Source of the DNA: Eledone cirrhosa
Taxonomy: Eukaryota
Assembly: GCA_964016885.1 (NCBI GenBank)
Contig: OZ024742.1
Location: forward strand, 287,928,001-287,992,000
Direction of reading: 5' to 3'
DNA length: 64,000 nt
A program made the position numbers and the translations under genes. Below the pieces are notes generated by a model. It worked only from the letters and a program-made list of their open reading frames with translations, did not search any database and was not told the DNA's origin. Positions 3,357 to 64,000 of this stretch are shown here, piece after piece (position 1 is the first letter of the stretch; every line of letters begins with the position of its first letter).

Positions 3357-3613
3357 GCGTTCCTAAAGGAAGTTTGTAAGTTTAATCGTATATAAGAGAA
3401 AGTTGCAGCATGTATGTAGTTTTATCGAATTTTAAGGGGTGTAGAGAGAGAGGTAATCAGATTGTATTAGAGGGGTAAAGCGTCATGTATTTAGTTTTAT
3501 CGATTATTTCCGTAACTGTGGGTGAGTTTGAATGAAATAAATAGTCGTTGACATTCTTACAGACTTTGAGTCGAATAGGTTTGAAATTGTGCAAATGTAT
3601 AAACATGGAACAT

Positions 3614-3697
<84 letters not shown>

Positions 3698-3710
3698 TGC
3701 TTTTTATAGA
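2617..3710 (-). mobile_element. Non-autonomous Helitron inside a tektin intron
   Basis: Minus-strand 5' TCTATA start, 3' hairpin CCCGAGCAACGCCGGG followed by CTAG (2617-2644). Internal ~90-bp duplication (2913-3095) and (CT)n/(CA)n tracts. Confidence 0.7.
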
Positions 3711-3743
3711 TAATGATGATATATAGATAACAGTTAACTTTAC

Positions 3744-3966
3744 CTTTTGAAGATGAGCTTGCATTTTATTACGAGTGTCTGTAGTTTCTCGAATACGAGC
3801 GTTAAAAGCGTTGTTGACGGCATTAAATTGACTCCACATACCATTGGCACACTGTCTAAGACATGCATCTATTTCTCCGCGAAGACGCTCAGAATTGGCT
3901 CGTTCCTTCTGCGAACGTAGCAGGTTATGTTGCGTGTAACGGCTCCACGAGTCTGGGATACTTAAG
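3744..3966 (-). CDS. Tektin-3/5-like gene, internal exon (223 nt)
   Basis: cacag acceptor and gtaaag donor. Translates LSIPDSWSRYTQHNLLRSQKERANSERLRGEIDACLRQCANGMWSQFNAVNNAFNARIRETTDTRNKMQAHLQK, similar to TEKT3 (VPESWAKF..NILRSQSER..EMWNQFNKVN..KIQTHLAK, recalled from memory). Confidence 0.93.
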
Positions 3967-4048
3967 CTGTGAATAGCATATGTTGGGAAATGAATCTTTA
4001 AAACTTTTATTGAAATCTTTTGTCATATTTAGCAATTTCATAATCTCG

Positions 4049-5200: not shown

Positions 5201-5233
5201 CGGGAATTTTACCCGCCCTAGATAGATAGATAT

Positions 5234-5832
5234 TCGCAACAATGCAGCACGCCATTTTTGCATTCATATATATATTTTTTCCCCTAGCTGTGGTGTGTCT
5301 TCTTTCTATCTCCTTACTGCTATCCCCTTTCTCTCTCCCCCTTCTCCCTCCTTGTAACTCTTGCTTTCCTTCACCCCCTCTGCTGGTCACACACTCTCTC
5401 AGCTGGCCTCTTCCTCACACTTTAGCTCACTCACTCTCTGCTACTCCCCCTCTCTCACTTCCTCCCGTCTGACCTGTGTGAAATCCTTTTCTCTCTCACT
5501 TTTCGCGTGGTTCGGACGTGTCTGCCTCTTCTCGTCGATTGATTTGTTCGGACTTATGTCCACAAGTATCATTGACTTGTCTCTCTTTTCCTCTCTTTAC
5601 GTTGCATTACTACTATGTTGTTTGTTTACTTTCCTCATTCAATTCGCTCTGTCCCAATAACTTATTTTAGTTATTGCTCCCACTGATTTTGAGGTGTCTG
5701 GTCTTTAATGCGAAGAAATACCAATGATAGTCGGCAGACAACTGATGATGGTCAGTCCCGTTTCTCGGTCTATTTTCATTCATATGTATCACACTCGCAA
5801 CAACGCAGCACGCCATTTTTTCATTCATATAT
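5234..5832 (+). mobile_element. Non-coding terminally redundant 561-bp element (retrozyme-like) carrying a permuted hammerhead motif
   Basis: ~40-bp direct repeat at 5234 and 5795, CT-rich body, (TA)n flanks, homology to 40539-41124 and 62741-63669. Confidence 0.7.
5678..5749 (+). ncRNA. Candidate permuted hammerhead ribozyme, copy 3 (GUC site, predicted cut after 5698)
   Basis: GGTGTC|TGGTCT TTAAT GCGA A GAAATACC AATGATA GTCGG C AGACAA CTGATGA T; stems complementary with two mismatches. Confidence 0.6.
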
Positions 5833-19119: not shown

Positions 19120-22100
19120 TCAGGATTTGGGCACCATGGCCCATTCGAGAAGAGAATTACTGTTTGCGGAGACATATCCGGGTGTGGGTGGTTTGTCCGG
19201 GATTACTTGGAGGAATTTGTCCAAAGACTTCTTGAATTTTGTGTGGTCAGTTTCTGTTTTGACGTGTCCTGGTGTGATGTTGAAGAGAGCAGGGCCGATT
19301 GAGGTGAAATAATTGTGCCGTATTGTTGTTATGAGTTGCGATTTAGATTTTTGAATGGGACGGATAGCACGGGGCCCAAGCCTTGGGTGTATCTTGAAGG
19401 CGATGCCAACATCATTTGGGCAGTGATGATGGAACATTTTCCACATCATGCAGATAATATAACGCTCACGGCGACGTTGGAGTGAGTAAAGTTTCAGGTT
19501 TTCCAATCGACCCCAGTAATCAAGGTCTGACATGCCATCTATCTTTTTCGTGATTGCCCTTTGAGGAGCTTCAAGTTTCATGATACTTTGTTTCGTGTGG
19601 GGAGACCACAGTGGACAACAGTATTCAAGGTGTGGTCGGGCGAAAGTAGAGAAGAGAAGGATAATGGTGCGGGAATCTCTCGACTGGAAGGTTCTGAGGA
19701 TCCAGGAACACATTCTGCGGGCCATGTCAACTTTGCTGCTTATATGCGTGGTCCAGCTTATGTTGCTGTCCACGGTTACTCCCAAGTCTCTGATGTTGTT
19801 AGATGCCACGAGAGTTTCCCCGGAGGGAAGGGAGTACGGGAGTTTCAGAGCATCCTCTTTTCCAAAGTGGATCAGTTCGAATTTGTCTTCGTTCAGTAAC
19901 ATGTTGTTCTTTTCTGCCCATTGGGTAACAGCCAGTAGGTCTGACTGAAGGCTTATCCGGTCATCCACGCCATTGATGACCTTTTGGAGCTTGGAATCAT
20001 CAGCGAAAATTTTAATGTTGCTGTGTTTGATGATGTCAGTGATGTCATTAATATAGATGATGAAGAGAAGTGGGCCCAACACAGTGCCTTGTGGGACTCC
20101 ACTACTGACTTTGGCTGGGCTTGATTTGACTCCCTCAACTACAACATGTTGGGTTCTGTTTGACAGGAAGCTCTTGATCCACTGCAGCAGCTTTCCAGTG
20201 ACACCAATATTGGACAGCTTTCTCAGTAGAATGTTATGATCAACCCTGTCAAAGGCCTTGCTGAAATCAAGGTAGATAACATCAGTGTTGGAACCCTCTC
20301 CCAAGGCTCTCAAAATGTCATCAAAGTGATGCAGTAGTTGCGTCAGGCAATCCCTTCCATTACGGAATCCATGCTGGTTGGAGTTCAGCATATTGTTACT
20401 CTCAAGGAAGTGGGTCATTCGCGATCTCACCACTCGCTCAAATACCTTAATGATATGAGAGGTGAGTGAGATTGGACGGTAATTCACGGCAAGGGATTTG
20501 TTTCCCTTTTTGAAAACTGGGACAACAGACTGGGATAGAAGGTTTTCTGGCACATATCCAGCATCCAGTGAGTTCCGCCACAGATTGGCAAGAGGAGAAG
20601 CAAGTTGGTGTTGACACGCCTTCAAGACACAAGCAGGGAACCTATCGGGACCTACTGCTGAATTATGCTTGATTTCCTTTATTGCCGCCAAGACATCAGG
20701 GGCGCCAAACGTTATGTCCGATAAGGTGTAATGGGGAGTAACATCGCCGATACAGCCCAGATCGGCCATATCAGGATTGCTGAAAACAGAGCAGTATTGT
20801 TTCTGCAGTATCTCACCCATGGTTTTAGCATTGTCTTGAAGAGTGCCATTTTCATCAATTAGAGGGCCAACAGTAGAGCCAGTGATTTTGTGTTTTTTTG
20901 CAAATGAAAAGAACACTTTGGGATTAAGTTTGATCTTCTCAATGGCCCAGGCCTCTTCAGCTCTTCTCTGATTGTTGATGAGGGACATTATGTTGTTTTG
21001 GAGGTTATGTTTTTTAATCTCTAGTGATGAAATGGCAGTCAAGTTGATGTGTTGCTGCTGACAGTATTTCAGATTGTTGATTTTTTTGTTCGTTCTCTTA
21101 ATTTTTCTGATGAGCGTTTTTCTATTTCTAGGGATTCTGCTCTTAGATTTGTTTATAGTTCTTAATGGGGTGTGTTTAGCACATATGTTTGTAACAGTGT
21201 CCACAAATGTCTGCCAGGACTTTTTGATGTTAGTGGGTGTATGAGTGTGCGTGAAGGACCAGTCGACATGTGCAAGATCATGACTGATCGCTTCCCAGTT
21301 TGCATTGTGGAAATCCATAGCGTCAAACGGATGGACAGGAGAAATGACATTGGGTTTGTATATTGGACGGTGGAATCTCAGATCACAGAGAACCATGTCA
21401 TGATCAGAGAGTAGAGTTTTCTCCACTGCAATATTGTGGATATTGTCAGTGTGATTGCTGAAAATTAAGTCTAGGACGTTTTTGTGGCACCTCGTTGGTT
21501 CGAGCACTAGTTGGGATAGGAAGAAATCATCCATGAAGTCAAGAAGCGATTCCACAGCTTCCCTGTCAGAGGTTGAGGCAGAAGAACCTGGTGGCAGGGT
21601 GTTTGTGGACCAGTCAACTCCGGGGAGGTTGAAGTCCCCCATCATTAAGATGTTGTCAGGGTGACACTCTTGGATGAAACACTTTATGCTGTTGAGGCAT
21701 TCCTTGAAGCATGGTACAGGCGTTTGGGGTGGCCTATAGAGCCCAACTACTAATAGGTTGTTGGTTTGACTGAATACAGTGACTGCCTCACAGTATCCAT
21801 TAGTGAATATGTTCATAGCCTCTGTTGAGAAAGAATTATGGACATAAATGGCAGTTCCGCCCTTTCTTCTGCCAGCGCGATCAGCACGGATGGCTTTGAA
21901 ATTTTTCACTTTCACCTCGGCTTCCAAGTGGAGGTTACTGAGATGGGTTTCAGTGAGGACGAAGAAAGGGATGTGGTTTGGATGGACATCAATCCAGTCC
22001 TCCAGGAATTTGATCTTCCATTTTTGAGTATTGGTGGAAGGGCTGATGCCTTGGGCGTTAAGCAAAAATGTAGAGGCGAGAGTGGATGGTTTTAATTGTT

Positions 22101-22140
22101 TTGGTGTGTTGTTAATTTGTTTGTTTGTTAATGGCAGCAA
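19120..22140 (-). CDS. LINE ORF2: apurinic-like endonuclease plus reverse transcriptase
   Basis: APE motifs LTETHL, YRPP, GDFN, LDLIF, SDH; RT motifs [36 protein letters not shown]; CR1-type RPHLEYC..WSP. Uninterrupted for 1006 aa, with no AUG before the APE domain. Confidence 0.95.
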   Translation of the reverse strand: MLPLTNKQINNTPKQLKPSTLASTFLLNAQGISPSTNTQKWKIKFLEDWIDVHPNHIPFFVLTETHLSNLHLEAEVKVKNFKAIRADRAGRRKGGTAIYVHNSFSTEAMNIFTNGYCEAVTVFSQTNNLLVVGLYRPPQTPVPCFKECLNSIKCFIQECHPDNILMMGDFNLPGVDWSTNTLPPGSSASTSDREAVESLLDFMDDFFLSQLVLEPTRCHKNVLDLIFSNHTDNIHNIAVEKTLLSDHDMVLCDLRFHRPIYKPNVISPVHPFDAMDFHNANWEAISHDLAHVDWSFTHTHTPTNIKKSWQTFVDTVTNICAKHTPLRTINKSKSRIPRNRKTLIRKIKRTNKKINNLKYCQQQHINLTAISSLEIKKHNLQNNIMSLINNQRRAEEAWAIEKIKLNPKVFFSFAKKHKITGSTVGPLIDENGTLQDNAKTMGEILQKQYCSVFSNPDMADLGCIGDVTPHYTLSDITFGAPDVLAAIKEIKHNSAVGPDRFPACVLKACQHQLASPLANLWRNSLDAGYVPENLLSQSVVPVFKKGNKSLAVNYRPISLTSHIIKVFERVVRSRMTHFLESNNMLNSNQHGFRNGRDCLTQLLHHFDDILRALGEGSNTDVIYLDFSKAFDRVDHNILLRKLSNIGVTGKLLQWIKSFLSNRTQHVVVEGVKSSPAKVSSGVPQGTVLGPLLFIIYINDITDIIKHSNIKIFADDSKLQKVINGVDDRISLQSDLLAVTQWAEKNNMLLNEDKFELIHFGKEDALKLPYSLPSGETLVASNNIRDLGVTVDSNISWTTHISSKVDMARRMCSWILRTFQSRDSRTIILLFSTFARPHLEYCCPLWSPHTKQSIMKLEAPQRAITKKIDGMSDLDYWGRLENLKLYSLQRRRERYIICMMWKMFHHHCPNDVGIAFKIHPRLGPRAIRPIQKSKSQLITTIRHNYFTSIGPALFNITPGHVKTETDHTKFKKSLDKFLQVIPDKPPTPGYVSANSNSLLEWAMVPKS

Positions 22141-23291
22141 TGGGAGTTTGTGCAGTGGGGTGATAGTGGAGGGTGGTGCTGGGTGATAGCTCGAATGTTT
22201 TTTTCCAGTTCTTTTGCCAGATTCATTATGGCTAAAAAAGAGGAAGAAGTTTCCTGTTTAGAAGACTGTTGGTGACTGTGGTAGTGGTTATTTTTATGTA
22301 GGTTATGGTTTTTGTTTTTGCTTTTATTTTCATTTATCCGACGGGTCCCCGGGAGATGGGTAAAGGGACAATCCCGGTCTAAACACAATCTGTCTCGCAG
22401 GGAAAAACGGCAGATTTGTGGATTCCTTGTTTGAGTTATTGGTGGTTGTGTTGGTGTTAAATTAGAGTATGTATTATGGTGGTGGCTGTTTGTGGGGATA
22501 GATCGTTTTGTCCTAGGTAAATGGGTGAATTTGCAGCCACTATCCGTACATATTCTATAGCGTAGAGAGTAGCGGCAAATGATGGGGTTTCGAGTGGGTG
22601 GGTATATGGGTGTGGGTGTTGTGAGAGGTGTAGATGATGGTTTGGGTAGGATTTGACGACCTTTGTGGACTGTGGGAGGGAGAGTTCTTGTTCTGGTATT
22701 AGAAGGTAAATTCCTTGACATAGCAGTAGACAAAAATGTTGTAGTAGTAGTAGTAGTAGTAGGCAGAGATGTTGGCAGTGGTGATGATTGGACTGCTGGG
22801 CCAGAGAAAGGATGTGGCGTTTCATGCTGTGAGACAGAGGCTACTGGGGGGTCAATAGTTTCATTTAGTAGATCGGCCATTGTTGATGAATCAAGGAGTG
22901 GTTCACACTGTTGTTGTTGCTGTTGTTGATGTTGTTGTTGTAGCTGTTGTTGATGTTGTTGTTGTTGCTGTTGTAGCTGCTGTTGTTGTTGTTGTTGCTG
23001 TTGTAGCTGCTGTTGTTGTTGTTGCTGCTGCTGGACAGCATTCGAAGAGAAAACACACCGTAGTTTATCCAAATGTTTATTGATTAATTTAAAAGCAATT
23101 TCGATTTGCTTTAATTTATTTTGAATCTGTTGTTCAGATCGAGTTTTCAAAAATTGAACTGTACGTTTAGCAATGTCGTTCAGAGATGAAGCATCTATAT
23201 CTTCTGTTTGGGAAAGGCAATGCCATGTGTTTATTAGAATGTCGATTTCATTATCAGACCAGTTCTGTTTGGATTTTTGCTGGTTAGCCAT
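22128..23291 (-). CDS. LINE ORF1: Myb/SANT-like N-terminus, polyQ tract, two CCCH-type zinc fingers
   Basis: AUG start; WSDNEIDILINTW..RSEQQIQNKLKQI; CRYSLRYRICTDSGCKFTH and CRFSLRDRLCLDRDCPFTH. Confidence 0.85.
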   Translation of the reverse strand: MANQQKSKQNWSDNEIDILINTWHCLSQTEDIDASSLNDIAKRTVQFLKTRSEQQIQNKLKQIEIAFKLINKHLDKLRCVFSSNAVQQQQQQQQQLQQQQQQQQQLQQQQQQHQQQLQQQHQQQQQQQCEPLLDSSTMADLLNETIDPPVASVSQHETPHPFSGPAVQSSPLPTSLPTTTTTTTTFLSTAMSRNLPSNTRTRTLPPTVHKGRQILPKPSSTPLTTPTPIYPPTRNPIICRYSLRYRICTDSGCKFTHLPRTKRSIPTNSHHHNTYSNLTPTQPPITQTRNPQICRFSLRDRLCLDRDCPFTHLPGTRRINENKSKNKNHNLHKNNHYHSHQQSSKQETSSSFLAIMNLAKELEKNIRAITQHHPPLSPHCTNSHCCH

Positions 23292-27583: not shown

Positions 27584-29353
27584 TTTACTCTTTTACCCTT
27601 TTACCTGTTTCAGCCATCCGGCTGAGGCCATGCTGGGGCACCGCCCTTGTTACTACACATTTTATCTCCAGCCTGTATAGGTTGGCCACTGGTGTAAGAG
27701 GGAGTTTGTTGCTGCTGCCCTTAGGTTTCCCTCGTGTCTTGCTGTGGGCTCATCCGGGATCCTGGATAACAAGGTGTCGAGATGTTTCTTAAAGACATCC
27801 ACCTCCACGTCATGCAAGTCTCTCAGTTGCCCCGGCAGCCTGTTGAAGAGTTGAGGGCCCTTGAATCCCAGGCTATTGCAATACCTGCTCCTTATTCTAG
27901 ATGTCGAAGACGGGACCTTTGGCACCACACAGTGACGTCCTGTTCGACGGTTGGTCCAGCTCCCAATGCCAAAGTTTGGTGCTAGTCCCTCCAGGATTTT
28001 CCCCATGTAGATCACTGCGTATCTCTCCCGTCTTCGCTCCAAGGAGTAGAGGTTCAGTTCCTTTAGCCTCTCCCAGTAGCTTGTCTCCCTCATCTTGGCA
28101 ATCCTCTTGGTGTAGCTTCGCTGGATTGCCACAAGCTCCGTGGTTAGTTTGACACTATGGGGTGACCACAACTGGGAGCAGTAGTCCAGGCGGCTTAGGA
28201 CAAAAGTCCTCCACAGTGTCAACATGGTGTCTCGATCTCTTGTCCGGAAAGTCCTCAAGATCCAGCCAGCGAGTCGTATGCACGTTGTCGCCACTTTCAT
28301 GATGTGTGAAGAAAAAGATGCATCATCGCTCATGTCTATGCCCAGGTCTCGTATCGATTTTGACACGAGGATATCGGTCCCTCCTGGTCCTGTGTAGCTG
28401 TGTTCCACTATATTTGTGTTTGCAGGTTTGTATTGTAGGGCTTGGAATTTGCCAGCATTAAACTGCATGTTGTTTTCTTCCGCCCATCTGTATATGGCAT
28501 CCAGATCCTGCTGTAAAAGGGCAGCGTCAGCCGGGTTTTTGATTGCCTGTGCTACCTTAGTGTCATCAGCATAGCTAGTGAGGGATGTTGTTGCATGCAC
28601 CACAGAGGGCATGTCCGAGAGAGCCACCAAAAACAGTAATGGTCCCAGGACTGTCCCCTGGGGCACCCCACTTGTTATCGGTGTTTCCCTCAAGAGGGCC
28701 CCATTTGCTGCGACTGCCTGGCTTCTGTCCCTTAGGAAGCCATGCAGCCACTCACCTACTTTTCCAGTTATGCCGAGTCCGTGTAGTTTGTGACATATCA
28801 TTCCGTAGTCGACCTTGTCAAAGGCCTTCGCAAAGTCAAGATATATCACGTCCACATGTGAGCTGTCTAGTAGTTGTCTCAGTACCCAGTCGTAGTGATG
28901 TAGCAGCTGTGTAAGGCAGCTTCTTCCTGGGCGCAAGCCATGTTGCGTGCTAGTCAGGCGGTCATTTTCTTCGAGGAAAGTGATTAGTTTCTTTCTGACA
29001 ACTCGCTCCATGACCTTACTGATATGCGACGTCAGGGAGACTGGCCTATAGTTCTTGGCCTCCGCTCTACTACCTCCTTTATGGATAGGGCATATTGTGC
29101 CTTCTTTCAGCTCCCTGGGTAGTACACCGCTAGCCAAGGAGCTTCTGAAGAGCATCTTCAGTGGAGTTGCTAGGGCCCGCTTACATATTTTTAAGAGAAT
29201 TGCTGGGAATCCATCAGGTCCAGCATCCGAGTCTGTTCTAATTTCATCAATGGCGTACACCACATCCTCCTCCGTTATGTCTATGTGGTTGATGGTTGCC
29301 ATTTCTTGATGTAGTGTTGTGGCATCAAAGAACTCCTCTGGCTTCGTTATTTG
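27584..29353 (-). mobile_element. 5'-truncated CR1-group LINE (second family) with an open RT frame at 27662-29353
   Basis: [48 protein letters not shown]; 3' end GGTGCCCCAGCATGG..GCTGAAAC plus a (GTAAAAG/A)n tail. The N-terminus given in the ORF track is microsatellite. Confidence 0.92.
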
Positions 29354-29382
29354 CATATATATATATATACATATATATTTAC

Positions 29383-29414
<32 letters not shown>

Positions 29415-29463
29415 GTATATATATTTACATATATATATATATATATACATATATATAAATATG

Positions 29464-29516
<53 letters not shown>

Positions 29517-29528
29517 GTATATATATAC

Positions 29529-29576
<48 letters not shown>

Positions 29577-29610
29577 GTATATATATACATATATATACAT
29601 ATATATATAC

Positions 29611-29649
<39 letters not shown>

Positions 29650-29748
29650 CGTATATATATACATATATATACATATATATATACATATATATACATATAT
29701 ATATACATATATATATATACATATATATACATATATATAGATATACAT

Positions 29749-29779
<31 letters not shown>

Positions 29780-30322
29780 TATACATATATATATATATGT
29801 ACATATATATACATATATATATATATGTACATATATATACATATATATATATATATATACATACGTATATATATGTACTTATATATACATATATATATAT
29901 ACATACGTATATATATATACATATATATACATATATATACATACGTATATATATATACATATATATACATATATATATGTACATATATATACATATATAT
30001 ATGTACATATATATACATATATATATGTACATATATATACATGTATATATATACCTACATATATATATATACATATATATATATATACATATATATATAC
30101 ATATATATATACATATATATACATATATATACATGTATATATATACCTACATATATATATATAAATATATATATACATATATATACATGTATATATATAC
30201 CTACATATATATATATATACATATATATATACATATAAATATATATATACATATATATATACATATAAATATATATATACATATATATACATGTATATAT
30301 ATACCTACATATATATATATAC

Positions 30323-40538: not shown

Positions 40539-41117
40539 AAACATGAGAAGAAAGAAGAATACTGCGTGGTTGCACATGGGTTACATATGATAAAATTAGT
40601 CCTTCGTCAGTGATTTGCCAACTATCATTGATATTTCATCGCATTAAAAATCATATACCTCAGGTTGGTGCGAGCAATAACTAAAAAAAGCTATTGGGAC
40701 AAGTAAATCGCGTAAAGCGAGGGGGACAAGTAAACAACATAGAAGGATGAAAGCAACGCAAAGATGGGAATAAACAAGCAACATGGTTATCCGGTCAGCA
40801 TAAACTGGGTGGATTTCATGAACGAGAGAGTTACAGACCGTCCGATGTGAGTGAGATGTGAGCAAGAAGAGAACCCACTACAAGCCAAACGTGTGGAAGT
40901 GAGAAGGGGAGAAACAGAGAGTGAGTGAGTGGAAGTGCGAGGAAGAGGTCAGTCGAGAGAAAGTGTAACTGACAGAGGGGGCGAAAGAAGGTGAGAGCAA
41001 CAGAGAGAACGGGAAGCAGTAAGAGAGAAACAGACAATCGCAGCCAAGGTAAATATGTATAAAAAAACATGAGAAGAAAGAAGAATACTGCGTGGTTGCA
41101 CATGGGTTACATATGAT

Positions 41118-41124
<7 letters not shown>
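40539..41124 (-). mobile_element. Non-coding terminally redundant 526-bp element (retrozyme-like) carrying a permuted hammerhead motif
   Basis: ~60-bp direct repeats 40539-40598 and 41065-41124; (TA)n flanks; homology to 5234-5832 and 62741-63669. Confidence 0.75.
40603..40673 (-). ncRNA. Candidate permuted hammerhead ribozyme, copy 2 (AUA site, predicted cut 40654/40653)
   Basis: TCGC A CCAAC CTGA GGTATA|TGATTT TTAAT GCGA T GAAATATC AATGATA GTTGG C AAATCA CTGACGA A. Confidence 0.7.
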
Positions 41125-45533: not shown

Positions 45534-45991
45534 TTTTTCAATGATTTTTTACATCCTTGACCTCCTTTCCAACACAAGAGACATATAGAAACATATGCAT
45601 ACATTGATGCACAGTGGGTTGACATCCATTATAATAATATAGCATGGCAATATACATACAAAGATTAAAGACATATTGAAGGACAAAATTAAAGTTAAAA
45701 TACAACATTGGCAGTTTACGAAGATAAAGCAAGAGGATAGTTTGAAGTAGTTAGTGTATGCAATAGTTACACGTGGGGCATGCACGTGTGTCTTATTTAT
45801 ATAAGATTATAGTGCGGCATGGTGTTACATGTAATACAAGCAGTTTAAGCAGGCAATCAAGAGTATTATGGGGGTTGTATTGGTAAAGTATTTTTTTTAT
45901 ATATATATGTATGATATCAAAAATATTAAAAGTATTAAAAGTGAGAAGCAAAACAACGCCACGGTCCTCGCATACACCACCATTTTCACAA

Positions 45992-47105
45992 GAAACGTAA
46001 ACATATTTAACAATAACTCGCAATATTATAATCAGGCATTAGCTAGATCAGGCCATAATATAGAAATCGAGTTCCTACCTACAAAAACACATAGCTACAA
46101 CATTATTTCGCACAACATGTCCATGAGGAAATTTAGTAATAAGAATAGCAACCACACACACAATAATACGGAGGATGCCAACAAAAGTAACCCACACCAC
46201 AGAAATTACCATAGTACCATAAAAAGAAACAACTCACCAGACATAAAAAACAAAAATAGAAGAAGAAATAATACATTTTTCAACCCTCCTTTCAATCTAA
46301 ACGTCTCTACCAACCTACCTAGGGCTTTCTTCTCACTACTAGATAAAAACTTCCCATCTGGCCACAAGTACCATAACCTTTTAAACAAAAACACTATTAA
46401 AATCTCCTACTCTACTACGCCTAACATAGCATACCACATAGCTAGTAGCAATAAAAGAAAAATTAATTCTTACTTCCAACAAACTAAATCACAACAGACG
46501 ATAAACCTTCAAAATAACATTATATCAACTAACCCTAATAACAATAGAAATAATAACAATAGCACTAGTGTAAGCAATAACGCTGGGAACGACAACCTCC
46601 ATAACCATAATCCTATAGCTACCATCCGGACTTCTACACAACATAATAACCGGCAGACTAACACCCAGAATAATTGTAACTGTAGATCTAATAGAACCTG
46701 CCCTTTAGATAAAAAAAATGCTTAATCAAGGATATCATATACTCATGCACCGTCACAACTAGCAACTCTTCTGAAACGTATATAGGCTCTACTTCAAACT
46801 GCTTCAAAACCAGATACAATTCGCACCTCCACTCTTTCAAAAAACACAGTCTAGCCAACTCCACTTCACTATCTAGCTACATACACTATCTAAAAACTAA
46901 AAATAAATCATATACACTTAAATGGGAAGTGATAGGTAACGCGACATCGTACAAACCACCTAATAAATTTTGTAACCTCTGTCTACTAGAGACCCATACT
47001 ATTATCTTCTCAAACCATAACCTCCTTAATAAAAAATCAGAAGTGTTCGCGTCTTGCCAGCACCGCTTCCGACACTCCTTCCAAAACTTTAAACCCAATA
47101 TATAA
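45992..47105 (+). pseudogene. Naiad-type PLE ORF C-terminus (RT thumb, linker, GIY-YIG), frameshifted at the A8 run 46711-46718
   Basis: FFNPPFNLNVSTN..IKISYSTTPN; CNC..CPL..CLIKDIIYSC..YIGST..FKTRYNSH..CNLCLLE..LLNKKSE..CQH; stop at 47103-47105. Confidence 0.85.
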
Positions 47106-62551: not shown

Positions 62552-62836
62552 TATATTCGTGTACAGATATTTTTGCATACGCAATAACAAAATATAAACA
62601 AAAGTATTTATTCGCGATAAAGTATTGATTTTCTTCGCACGGAAAAAACCCTGGTAATCTATGACGAATTTTTTTTATAAGCACAAAATGTAGACACCAT
62701 CCCGAGGCCGGAGTATTCCGTACTTCTCTGTACATATATATCTATTTCTTCTCACTTTCCGTTGCTTAAACCTTTTTGTTTGTTACCCTGGCGTCCCCTT
62801 TGTTTACGTGTCCCAACGACTTTTTTTAGCCGTTGT

Positions 62837-62907
62837 TCGCACCAACCTGAGGCATATGGCCCTTAAAGCGATGAAATGCCTGGGACGGTTGGAGGGTCAC
62901 TGATGAA
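62837..62907 (+). ncRNA. Candidate permuted hammerhead ribozyme, copy 1a (predicted cut after 62856)
   Basis: TCGC A CCAAC CTGA GGCATA|TGGCCC TTAAA GCGA T GAAATGCC TGGGACG GTTGG A GGGTCA CTGATGA A. Confidence 0.7.
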
Positions 62908-63329
62908 GGACTTACTTTTTCATATGCACCACCATTTGCAACGCGCAGCCATCATTATTATCATATTTACACATAATTTTTCTTCTGCTGCCACTCGTCT
63001 GTTTCGCTCTTTGTACCTTTTAACCTTTCTCGTTCTTTGTACCTTTTACCCTTTCTAGCAGTCTCTCTCTCTGTTAGCCTCCTCCTCAACTTTCACTCAC
63101 TCATTCTCTGTCACTACCTCTCCTCCTCCTCTTTCCTCCTCCTCCTTCAAGTTTGACCTGTGTGTAATTCTTTTCTCGCGCGGTCTTGACCAAGCTGGTA
63201 TGGAATTTTTTTCTCTCTCTCTCTTTCGTCTGCGACTTCACAAAACTTATGTTTACCGAATTCGTTGACCAGACCCCTTTATCTTCTTCTTCTTCTTCTT
63301 CTTCTTCTTCTTCTTCTTCTTCTTCTTCT

Positions 63330-63364
<35 letters not shown>

Positions 63365-63585
63365 TCTTCCCCCCCCCCGTTAGACCTGTGCGAAATTCTT
63401 TCCTTGCTCACATTTCAACCAGGTTTGATGGTCTTTTGTCTCTTGTTCACGATTTCACCGAGTTTATATTCATAGAGATCTGGGACTTGTCTATTTCTTC
63501 TCACTTTCCGTTGCTTAAACCTTTTTGTTTGTTACCCTGGCGTCCCCTTTGTTTACGTGTCCCAACGACTTTTTTTAGCCGTTGT

Positions 63586-63656
63586 TCGCACCAACCTGAG
63601 GCATATGGCCCTTAAAGCGATGAAATGCCTGGGACGGTTGGAGGGTCACTGATGAA
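63586..63656 (+). ncRNA. Candidate permuted hammerhead ribozyme, copy 1b (predicted cut after 63605)
   Basis: Identical to 62837-62907, offset 749. Confidence 0.7.
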
Positions 63657-64000
63657 GGACTTACTTTTTATATATATATATATATATATATATTAAAATA
63701 ACAGATTAAAGTTTAAGCAAAGAATCGCTGCTTTCACCCTTAACGGGATCTTCTGAAACTAAAAAAATCAATCTGTGAACGCAGAAGTAAATATTTCGAA
63801 AAACGTTGCAACAGAAGAAAGAGAGGAAGACGATACTTTGGTTCGTGGAAACGTTCCCTGGCAAAGAACGAAAAAAAACGAAGATATTACGTCGTTATTT
63901 GGAGCGGTGAAAACAATTACACGCAAAGACAAAACCACGTTTATGGTATAACTGAAGTCGTAGACTAAAATACTATTTAGGGAACCGAATGATTCTCGGC

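Follow-up and report, generated by a model that had tools for sequence, protein, structure and literature searches.

In 2023, Eckert et al. (PMC10085705) described the type-SGC ribozyme, a non-circular permutation of the hammerhead that was found in metatranscriptomes only, and five of these RNAs were cut at the expected bond at rates of 0.007–0.13 per minute. In the genomes of known organisms, the same study found no permuted RNAs besides one doubtful bacterial GCS candidate, and it left as a puzzle how the far end of stem III joins the stem I-II helix (PMC10085705). Within the literature searched, the term “type-SGC” occurs in that paper alone, which the available part of a 2026 paper (PMC13725137) cites in passing; the word “kink” is absent from the text of the 2023 supplement.

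Penelope-like elements are the second point of reference. An optional tail of 30–40 nt, tandems, and inversions are typical of these elements (PMC8557442), and the tail sits between two internal start sites of the reverse transcriptase (RT) (PMC11167929), as described in the available parts of both papers. In the accessible portion of Craig et al. (2021; PMC8557442), the Naiads are the only major Penelope-like clade said to lack a hammerhead: no canonical hammerheads are reported for them, and “core” or “half core” motifs are flagged. The third group, the metazoan non-LTR retrozymes (bioRxiv 10.64898/2026.07.22.740005, seen in part), derive from Penelope-like elements, consist of non-coding units of a few hundred nucleotides with one hammerhead per unit, occur as monomers and short tandems, and are defined by a type I hammerhead.

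We analyzed a 64-kb stretch of DNA (hereafter, the window) from an animal genome with an assembly of 3.0 Gb. A descriptor composed of stem III-UH-stem I, GAAA-stem III, and stem I-CUGANGA returned exactly four matches in the window, all in the order S-G-C, that is, cleavage site, GAAA, CUGANGA (H17 positions in Table 1), whereas 200 shuffled windows gave a mean of 0.025 and a maximum of one. The first-pass annotation had claimed four sites holding all three hammerhead strands in this non-cyclic order; the strands that it quoted agree with the sequence as written, and the descriptor recovered the same sites. The four sites thus stand, but they hold only three distinct sequences, because the copies at 62837 and 63586, spaced 749 nt apart, are identical. 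The copy at 5678 is partly decayed, with one mismatch in stem I and UCCC in place of UCGC. The cyclic orders of hammerhead types I, II, and III (CGS, GSC, and SCG) do not describe these RNAs, and no Rfam family matched at its gathering score anywhere in the window; the single snoRNA match in 62700–63700 was judged to be due to chance.

The annotation had held this topology to be undescribed and had named an existing report of the fold as grounds against its own proposal; type SGC is such a report (PMC10085705). It had also put the motif at about 71 nt. The RNA is longer, about 102 nt (62810–62911), as it includes a 5' leader (62810–62835) that forms a helix with the strand following CUGANGA and contributes a hairpin. 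This leader helix and hairpin, which make up a four-way junction, were overlooked, as were the host element and the link to Naiads.

The predicted architecture is as follows. Three helices, PA, PB, and PC, together with the single 10.1-11.1 pair, would form a four-way junction. PA joins a leader strand to the four bases following position 10.1, PB is a hairpin downstream of that strand, and PC joins the subsequent leader strand to the four bases preceding position 11.1. In this genome, stem II would open with the one covarying 10.1-11.1 pair and then exchange strands with the leader. Beyond a 3-nt bulge with tandem G-A pairs, stem III is prolonged by an outer helix, PD, and the far ends of PC, PD, and stem I meet.

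Table 1. Coordinates of the S-G-C ribozymes and of the insertions that carry them in the window
Feature	Position	Strand	Remarks
Family A insertion	62741..63668	+	749-nt monomer present 1.24 times; flanked by (TA)n; terminal repeat of 180 nt
Leader strand of helix PA	62810..62813	+	Pairs with 62908-62911; 92.7% of cells paired, one double change
Leader hairpin, helix PB	62814..62835	+	8 pairs, U-rich loop; 4/8 pairs change on both sides
Leader strand of helix PC (functional body of stem II)	62837..62840	+	Pairs with 62868-62871; 99% paired
PD 5' strand and non-bulged K-turn strand	62842..62850	+	Box D-like CUGA; 4/6 PD pairs double-changed
Block S: stem III 5' strand, U16.1, H17, stem I 5' strand	62851..62862	+	U16.1 62855; H17 62856, predicted to be cut on its 3' side
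Linker from stem I to stem II	62863..62867	+	5 nt; UUAAW in 23/24 copies
Block G: PC 3' strand, 11.1, GAAA, stem III 3' strand	62868..62880	+	11.1 62872; GAAA 62873-62876
K-turn bulged strand and PD 3' strand	62881..62892	+	3-nt bulge; GA 62884-62885
Block C: stem I 3' strand, CUGAUGA, 10.1, PA 3' strand	62894..62911	+	CUGAUGA 62900-62906; 10.1 62907
Family A tail region between preferred 3' ends	62920..62965	+	Ends about +66 and about +107 from the cut
Second ribozyme copy of family A	63559..63660	+	Identical; H17 63605; insertion stops at the short 3' end
Family B insertion	40540..41124	-	Single unit with a terminal repeat of 58 nt; flanked by (TA)n runs
Family B ribozyme	40700-40599	-	H17 40654
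Family C insertion	5232..5826	+	One unit plus terminal repeat of about 36-40 nt
Family C ribozyme	5651-5753	+	Partly decayed; H17 5698

To assess these helices, 24 intact copies from about seven families were hand-picked by means of motif patterns; the copies are mutually related. Pairing holds in 96.0% of the 816 cells, and 15 of the 34 pairs show changes on both sides, with at least one in each of the seven helices. These numbers of paired cells and double changes were reached by none of 500 shuffles, and controls with slid strands pair in only 26–47% of cells; the count of further pair types shows no excess over the shuffles (465/500). An earlier set of 17 copies gave similar values (95.5% paired, 14/34 pairs double-changed), with PC invariant. 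The compensatory changes that had been claimed for stem I, stem III, and the outer helix are found in 3/6, 1/5, and 4/6 pairs of the 24 kin copies, and the single 10.1-11.1 pair covaries as proposed (U-A 14, U-G 5, A-U 4, C-G 1). The proposed UCGC/GCGA helix, here PC, is backed by one compensatory pair, C-G to U-A, in family G alone, and the 5-nt linker between stems I and II is present as noted (Table 1). H17 is A in 19 copies and C in five.

CUGANGA, GAAA, and UH are present in all 24 chosen copies. When copies were examined in whichever half the search pattern had left free, CUGANGA was retained in 28/30 and UH in 20/20, the 5' half being gone in six more of 26. The PB hairpin is predicted in all three 111-nt folds, and folding energies calculated without pseudoknots are unremarkable (z from -0.39 to -1.12). 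In an automatic junction test of the window copies, the leader was matched by 1, 26, and 45 of 100 shuffled leaders, so that it was singled out in just one of the three copies, because the script requires unbroken helices. Taken together, the sequences support seven helices around a hammerhead core.

The bulge in stem III had been read as a standard K-turn, and this reading holds in all 24 chosen copies: a 3-nt bulge is followed by G-A and A-G pairs, with G at 2n and A at 1n. Unselected copies keep 2n G and 1n A in 18/20 and the GA of the bulged strand in 28/30. In two family F copies (L315 and L320), the 1n adenine is absent and the core is intact. At 3b-3n, the 24 copies have U-U (9), C-U (7), A-A (3), U-G (3), or A-G (2), and U-U is the pair seen at this position in box C/D kink-turns; family A has C at 3b. 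In sequence pattern, the element resembles that class: the 3-nt bulge, the G-A and A-G pairs, and a CUGA facing a box C-like strand are shared, with U-U in 9/24 copies, whereas the element's K-turn lies inside an extended hammerhead stem III and has other 3b-3n combinations in 15/24. According to the available part of PMC4382518, 3n=G or 3b=C allows ion-driven folding, whereas box C/D K-turns need protein. One further SGC ribozyme (L229:735-875) has CUGA and tandem G-A pairs but lacks the 3-nt bulge and may represent an intermediate on the way to the K-turn. In the literature searched, which left most subscription journals outside its coverage, no natural K-turn within a permuted hammerhead was found.

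With the published type-SGC RNAs (HRIMA-1 and variants; PMC10085705), the element shares the S-G-C order, the complete set of core nucleotides, the pseudoknots formed by stems I and III, and a short stem I-II linker, although this linker has 5 nt rather than the typical 3. The differences lie around stem II. In the part of PMC10085705 available to us, stem II is continuous between blocks G and C, and the stem I-II helix arises from the sequence that extends stem II on its 3' side. None of the 24 element copies fits that stem II, and the published SGC search would therefore miss them. Here, a single pair and a helix formed with the leader make up stem II, within a four-way junction. The leader also pairs with the strand that follows CUGANGA, the partner of the strand preceding stem I lies upstream of block S, and stem III runs on through the K-turn into a helix closing the distal junction. 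Unlike the published RNAs, moreover, this one is genomic and resides in a retroelement.

The host element consists of non-coding units of about 500–750 nt with terminal redundancy. Units in the window hold neither an ORF with a recognizable domain nor a tRNA, and no ORF is joined to the element in either the sampled copies or the window elements. Genome-wide, a pattern for the 5' half gave 6,793 matches against one in the control, and one for the 3' half gave 16,865 exact matches against none. For family A, 40 of the 744 candidates were scored, and each of them is 100% identical over 131 nt. Two 8-kb stretches on C1 (L306 and L307) lie 1 Mb apart and are 98% identical; such segmental duplication or assembly redundancy can slightly inflate the copy counts. 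A 2.9-kb spacing in the same two stretches was ruled out as a longer unit, being due to an unrelated insertion. The family C copy of the window lies about 1.2 kb from a tektin exon (3504-4022 (-); Pfam PF03148, E 1e-23) and is possibly intronic and antisense to the tektin gene.

The insertion signature is that of Penelope-like elements. A (TA)n run lies within 150 nt of the cut in 76 of 95 copies (a few perhaps double-counted through overlapping loci), against 27.5% of random positions, most of the other copies being internal units of tandem arrays. Two 3' ends, 40–49 nt apart, occur in each family (A +66/+107, B +66/+115, D +65/+105; families C and E at about +85/+127), and six inverted pairs (L023, L038, L043, L047, L055, and L095) have the short end on one arm and the long end on the other. 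5' truncation, partial tandems, and inverted copies are all present, with arrays of 2–4 units elsewhere in the genome. The (TA)n targeting, 5' truncation, tail, partial tandems, and inverted copies are all shared with the Naiad clade, as described in the available part of PMC8557442. It should be mentioned that the (TA)n preference is not diagnostic of Naiads, as it is common to other Penelope-like families of this genome. The window elements also lack the ORF of an autonomous Naiad (N-terminal GIY-YIG, CxC, DKA, RT). With the non-LTR retrozymes, the element shares the non-coding units of a few hundred nucleotides, the single hammerhead per unit, and the monomers and short tandems; it differs in having an SGC ribozyme. 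No RNA data set was among the listed carriers of the element, whose parts occur as DNA in three contig sets, one of them from a second organism and study.

Copy ends bear on cleavage. Seven head-to-head junctions were found with a pattern that allows up to eight extra bases and is blind to shorter arms, and in all of this small number both arms begin either exactly at the predicted cut or one base earlier, which hints at cleavage in vivo; fold-back at this site may also be favored by a short palindrome. Among 102 local copies, 18 appeared truncated within 50 nt of GAAA, two of them being indel artefacts; three of the 18 begin exactly at the cut and nine at +5 to +16, with no sharp peak in this biased sample.

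Where does the ribozyme come from? Of the 54 published Naiad consensus sequences, we parsed 48 by eye over roughly their final 420 nt, and 18 of these 3' ends, from five phyla, read as SGC or CSG hammerheads. SGC was seen in cnidarians (3_Chem, Amil, Aacu, Anas, and 2_Movir), an acanthocephalan (Plae), a crustacean (EuTe), and cephalopods (Obim, Ovul, and Esco), and, with another periphery, in the spiders Ptep and Smim; CSG was seen in six nematode Naiads (1-3_Nbra, Hcon, Hpol, and Asuum). Fourteen of the inspected families carry the core or half-core flag, and eight of them parse as complete permuted hammerheads. By the same reading, the K-turn is present in Obim and Ovul, whose hairpin loop letters are those of families B, C, and E; the linker is common to Amil, Esco, and the element (coral and squid), and in Amil and Plae a plain bulge takes the position of the K-turn. 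Three ostracod Naiads show a partial motif alone, and the remaining ends that we viewed, including those of bivalves and a hemichordate, show no hammerhead by eye. Bivalve and hemichordate Naiads have recurrent, conserved, pairing-rich 3' motifs without CUGANGA, and motifs of this kind also occur at the 5' ends of bivalve, hemichordate, and coral Naiads; these are possibly another class of structured RNA or ribozyme. Both published CSG ribozymes come from DNA metagenomes and may therefore be pieces of Naiads. In the literature covered, no paper linking Naiads or animal genomes to permuted hammerheads was found.

Metagenome contigs provide further Naiad 3' ends. A broken Naiad RT of this genome, used as the query, found 1,639 relatives, and an alignment of 30 from the best 150 led to 80 loci, of which 62 have at least 300 nt downstream and 25 carry Naiad hallmark motifs; viral contigs contained no Naiad relative. 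A descriptor of the core in all six orders, stem II not being required, found five SGC cores in the 80 loci in its strict form and none in three controls, with one match in 100,812 nt of upstream ORF sequence; one long SCG match in the strict search is probably due to chance. The relaxed form found seven SGC cores, against 3, 2, and 3 mixed matches in the controls. Because no such core is seen in 73 of the 80 loci even with the relaxed descriptor, the SGC ribozyme is not universal among Naiad-like loci. All seven matches have leader helices to the 10.1 and 11.1 strands with a hairpin between them, and their leader junctions were equaled by only 0–3 of 100 shuffled leaders; the 10.1-11.1 pair is missing in four of the five strict loci. 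Intact Naiad ORFs of 926 and 978 aa with N-terminal GIY-YIG, CxC, and DKA are found at L226 and L273, and L228 has a split ORF. A covariance model built solely from this genome matched the L273 ribozyme (E 0.014) and missed the ribozyme in the remaining six loci.

The Naiads found in this genome are fragmentary. Of 3,752 candidates, 150 were scored and gave 149 matches; the best Naiad matches are all broken or short, and the search turned up no intact Naiad that could be the parent. One candidate (L118/L133) is too decayed for further analysis. A codon pattern of the Naiad endonuclease gave 10 matches against 20 in the control, two of the 10 being real remnants. One fossil Naiad 3' end (L208 and L141-L210; 19 copies) has the S-G-C order with another periphery, including a hairpin between S and G. 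Positions 3 and 8 of the hammerhead core form a pair in which changes can be compensatory. In the fossil family, position 3 is U in 14/19 copies and position 8 is A in 17/19, CUGAUGA being kept by one copy, and this U3/A8 combination may be a compensatory pair or plain decay. This core is visible by alignment alone: a profile search with the element's model found nothing in the fossil Naiad 3' ends, and the SGC descriptor gave one match in 30 fossil loci, inside the control range.

Two young Penelope-like families, both intact, targeting (TA)n, and encoding a C-terminal GIY-YIG, are candidate helpers. The first, which is very young (L091:1452-5171 (+), L092, and L049:1-860; 34,949 first-look candidates), has an intact 1240-aa ORF, which matched no Pfam family, (TA)n ends, and a minimal type I hammerhead in its terminal repeat. 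The second (L212-L217, L219-L223, and L225) has ORFs of up to 887 aa, (TA)n ends, two 3' ends about 41 nt apart, and a type I-like hammerhead with an altered core (U at 3 and G at 9, by eye). No DNA is shared between the element and either family. A Penelope-like ORF beside L049 was rejected as a parent, being a chance neighbor with its own type I hammerhead and no DNA similarity. In the window itself, another Penelope-like element is represented by its frameshifted 3' part at 45835-47105 (+), which matches GIY-YIG weakly (E 6e-4); no CUGANGA core was seen by eye in its 3' flank. The window also holds an intact 1045-aa endonuclease-RT ORF of a LINE (19120-22257 (-)) and a second RT fragment (27662-29878 (-)).

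We consider it probable that the window elements carry a self-cleaving S-G-C hammerhead of Naiad-type build on a high-copy, non-autonomous Penelope-like element, a retrozyme-like parasite. In its favor, the core is fixed while the helices covary, and both the core and the K-turn are kept in unselected copies. In this model, stems I, II, and III diverge from the core and come together once more at a second three-way junction, distal to it. Stem II would consist of a single pair and a helix to which the 5' leader contributes the other strand; the strand after CUGANGA would branch off to the leader, and the hairpin would complete the four-way junction. The stem III arm would then have to turn back to the distal junction, as the K-turn presumably makes it do here, a plain bulge taking that place in other Naiads. 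Such a covalent cage would stand in place of the contact between loops I and II in ordinary hammerheads.

As for mobility, a tandem transcript would be cut after 62856 and 63605, releasing a 749-nt monomer that may be circularized. A Penelope-like RT/GIY-YIG protein, supplied in trans, would nick (TA)n, and cDNA synthesis would start at either internal site, about 66 or 107 nt beyond the cut. The resulting copies would be truncated at the 5' end and redundant at their termini, with tandem and inverted arrangements. For the ribozyme module, the most likely origin is the 3' end of a Naiad. Because all the Naiads found in this genome are broken, the present helper may come from a different Penelope-like clade.

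The main objection is that the fold may be kept mainly to bind or position the helper RT or Snu13/15.5K, cleavage being slow, protein-dependent, or incidental. The same strand order cleaves at the analogous site in vitro (PMC10085705), which by analogy suggests that the element may cleave as well; no copy has a continuous stem II, however, and activity is therefore not guaranteed by the analogy. A binding role would suit this non-standard stem II and the box C/D-like U-U at 3b-3n in 9/24 copies, given that box C/D K-turns need protein. By the logic of the sequence, too, each genomic copy with an intact motif was made from uncut or re-ligated RNA. The hammerhead of an anole Penelope-like element, in the available part of PMC11167929, cut only with protein and was dispensable for insertion in vitro. 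On the contrary, CUGANGA, GAAA, and UH are kept across families with diverged stems and across phyla, and the head-to-head junctions begin at the predicted cut, so that we regard a mere binding role as unlikely.

Less likely still, the ribozyme is real and arose or was captured independently of Naiads, the strand order itself forcing a convergent build. No DNA similarity was found between the element and the metagenome Naiad loci, the fossil Naiad family combines the S-G-C order with a different periphery, a search with a 20-nt motif of the published octopus Naiad yielded one chance match in this genome against two in the control, and the young Penelope-like families here bear type I hammerheads. 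Against such convergence, the leader junction, the outer helix, the linker and loop letters, and the K-turn all recur in Naiad 3' ends, such shared features are absent from the available part of the published metatranscriptome alignment (PMC10085705), and the mobility hallmarks are Penelope-like. A chance hammerhead likeness in a passively spread satellite or SINE-like repeat could appeal to the kinship of the copies, so that covariation amounts to few independent events, to the weak folding z-scores, and to the blank Rfam search, but it is very improbable in view of the shuffled windows, the covariation in all seven helices, and the recurrence of the same order and junction behind Naiad ORFs in unrelated contigs.

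What appears to be new is the location in an animal genome, the leader-built stem II with a K-turn, and the association with Naiads, whose 3' ends were found here to have the same ribozyme build, whereas the window elements are without an ORF. Beyond our preferred reading of a Naiad-type ribozyme on a non-autonomous element, I speculate, with the arguments for and against about evenly balanced, that SGC ribozymes (CSG in nematodes) are the overlooked native ribozymes of much of the Naiad clade in at least five animal phyla, with the leader replacing half of stem II. The K-turn version seen here, possibly gated by Snu13/15.5K, would have persisted after the loss of its Naiad parent and reached a copy number above 16,000 through the machinery of another Penelope-like clade.

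If this is true, the apparent lack of a hammerhead in Naiads would be settled, and the non-circular permutations would gain their first home in the genomes of known animals. The K-turn or bulge would be a natural answer to the puzzle of the far end of stem III (PMC10085705). The three-block rule for hammerhead permutations would be too strict, because a fourth strand can help to assemble stem II, and current descriptors would consequently miss tens of thousands of genomic ribozymes. Finally, a natural K-turn in a hammerhead would make this RNA a candidate protein-controlled ribozyme.
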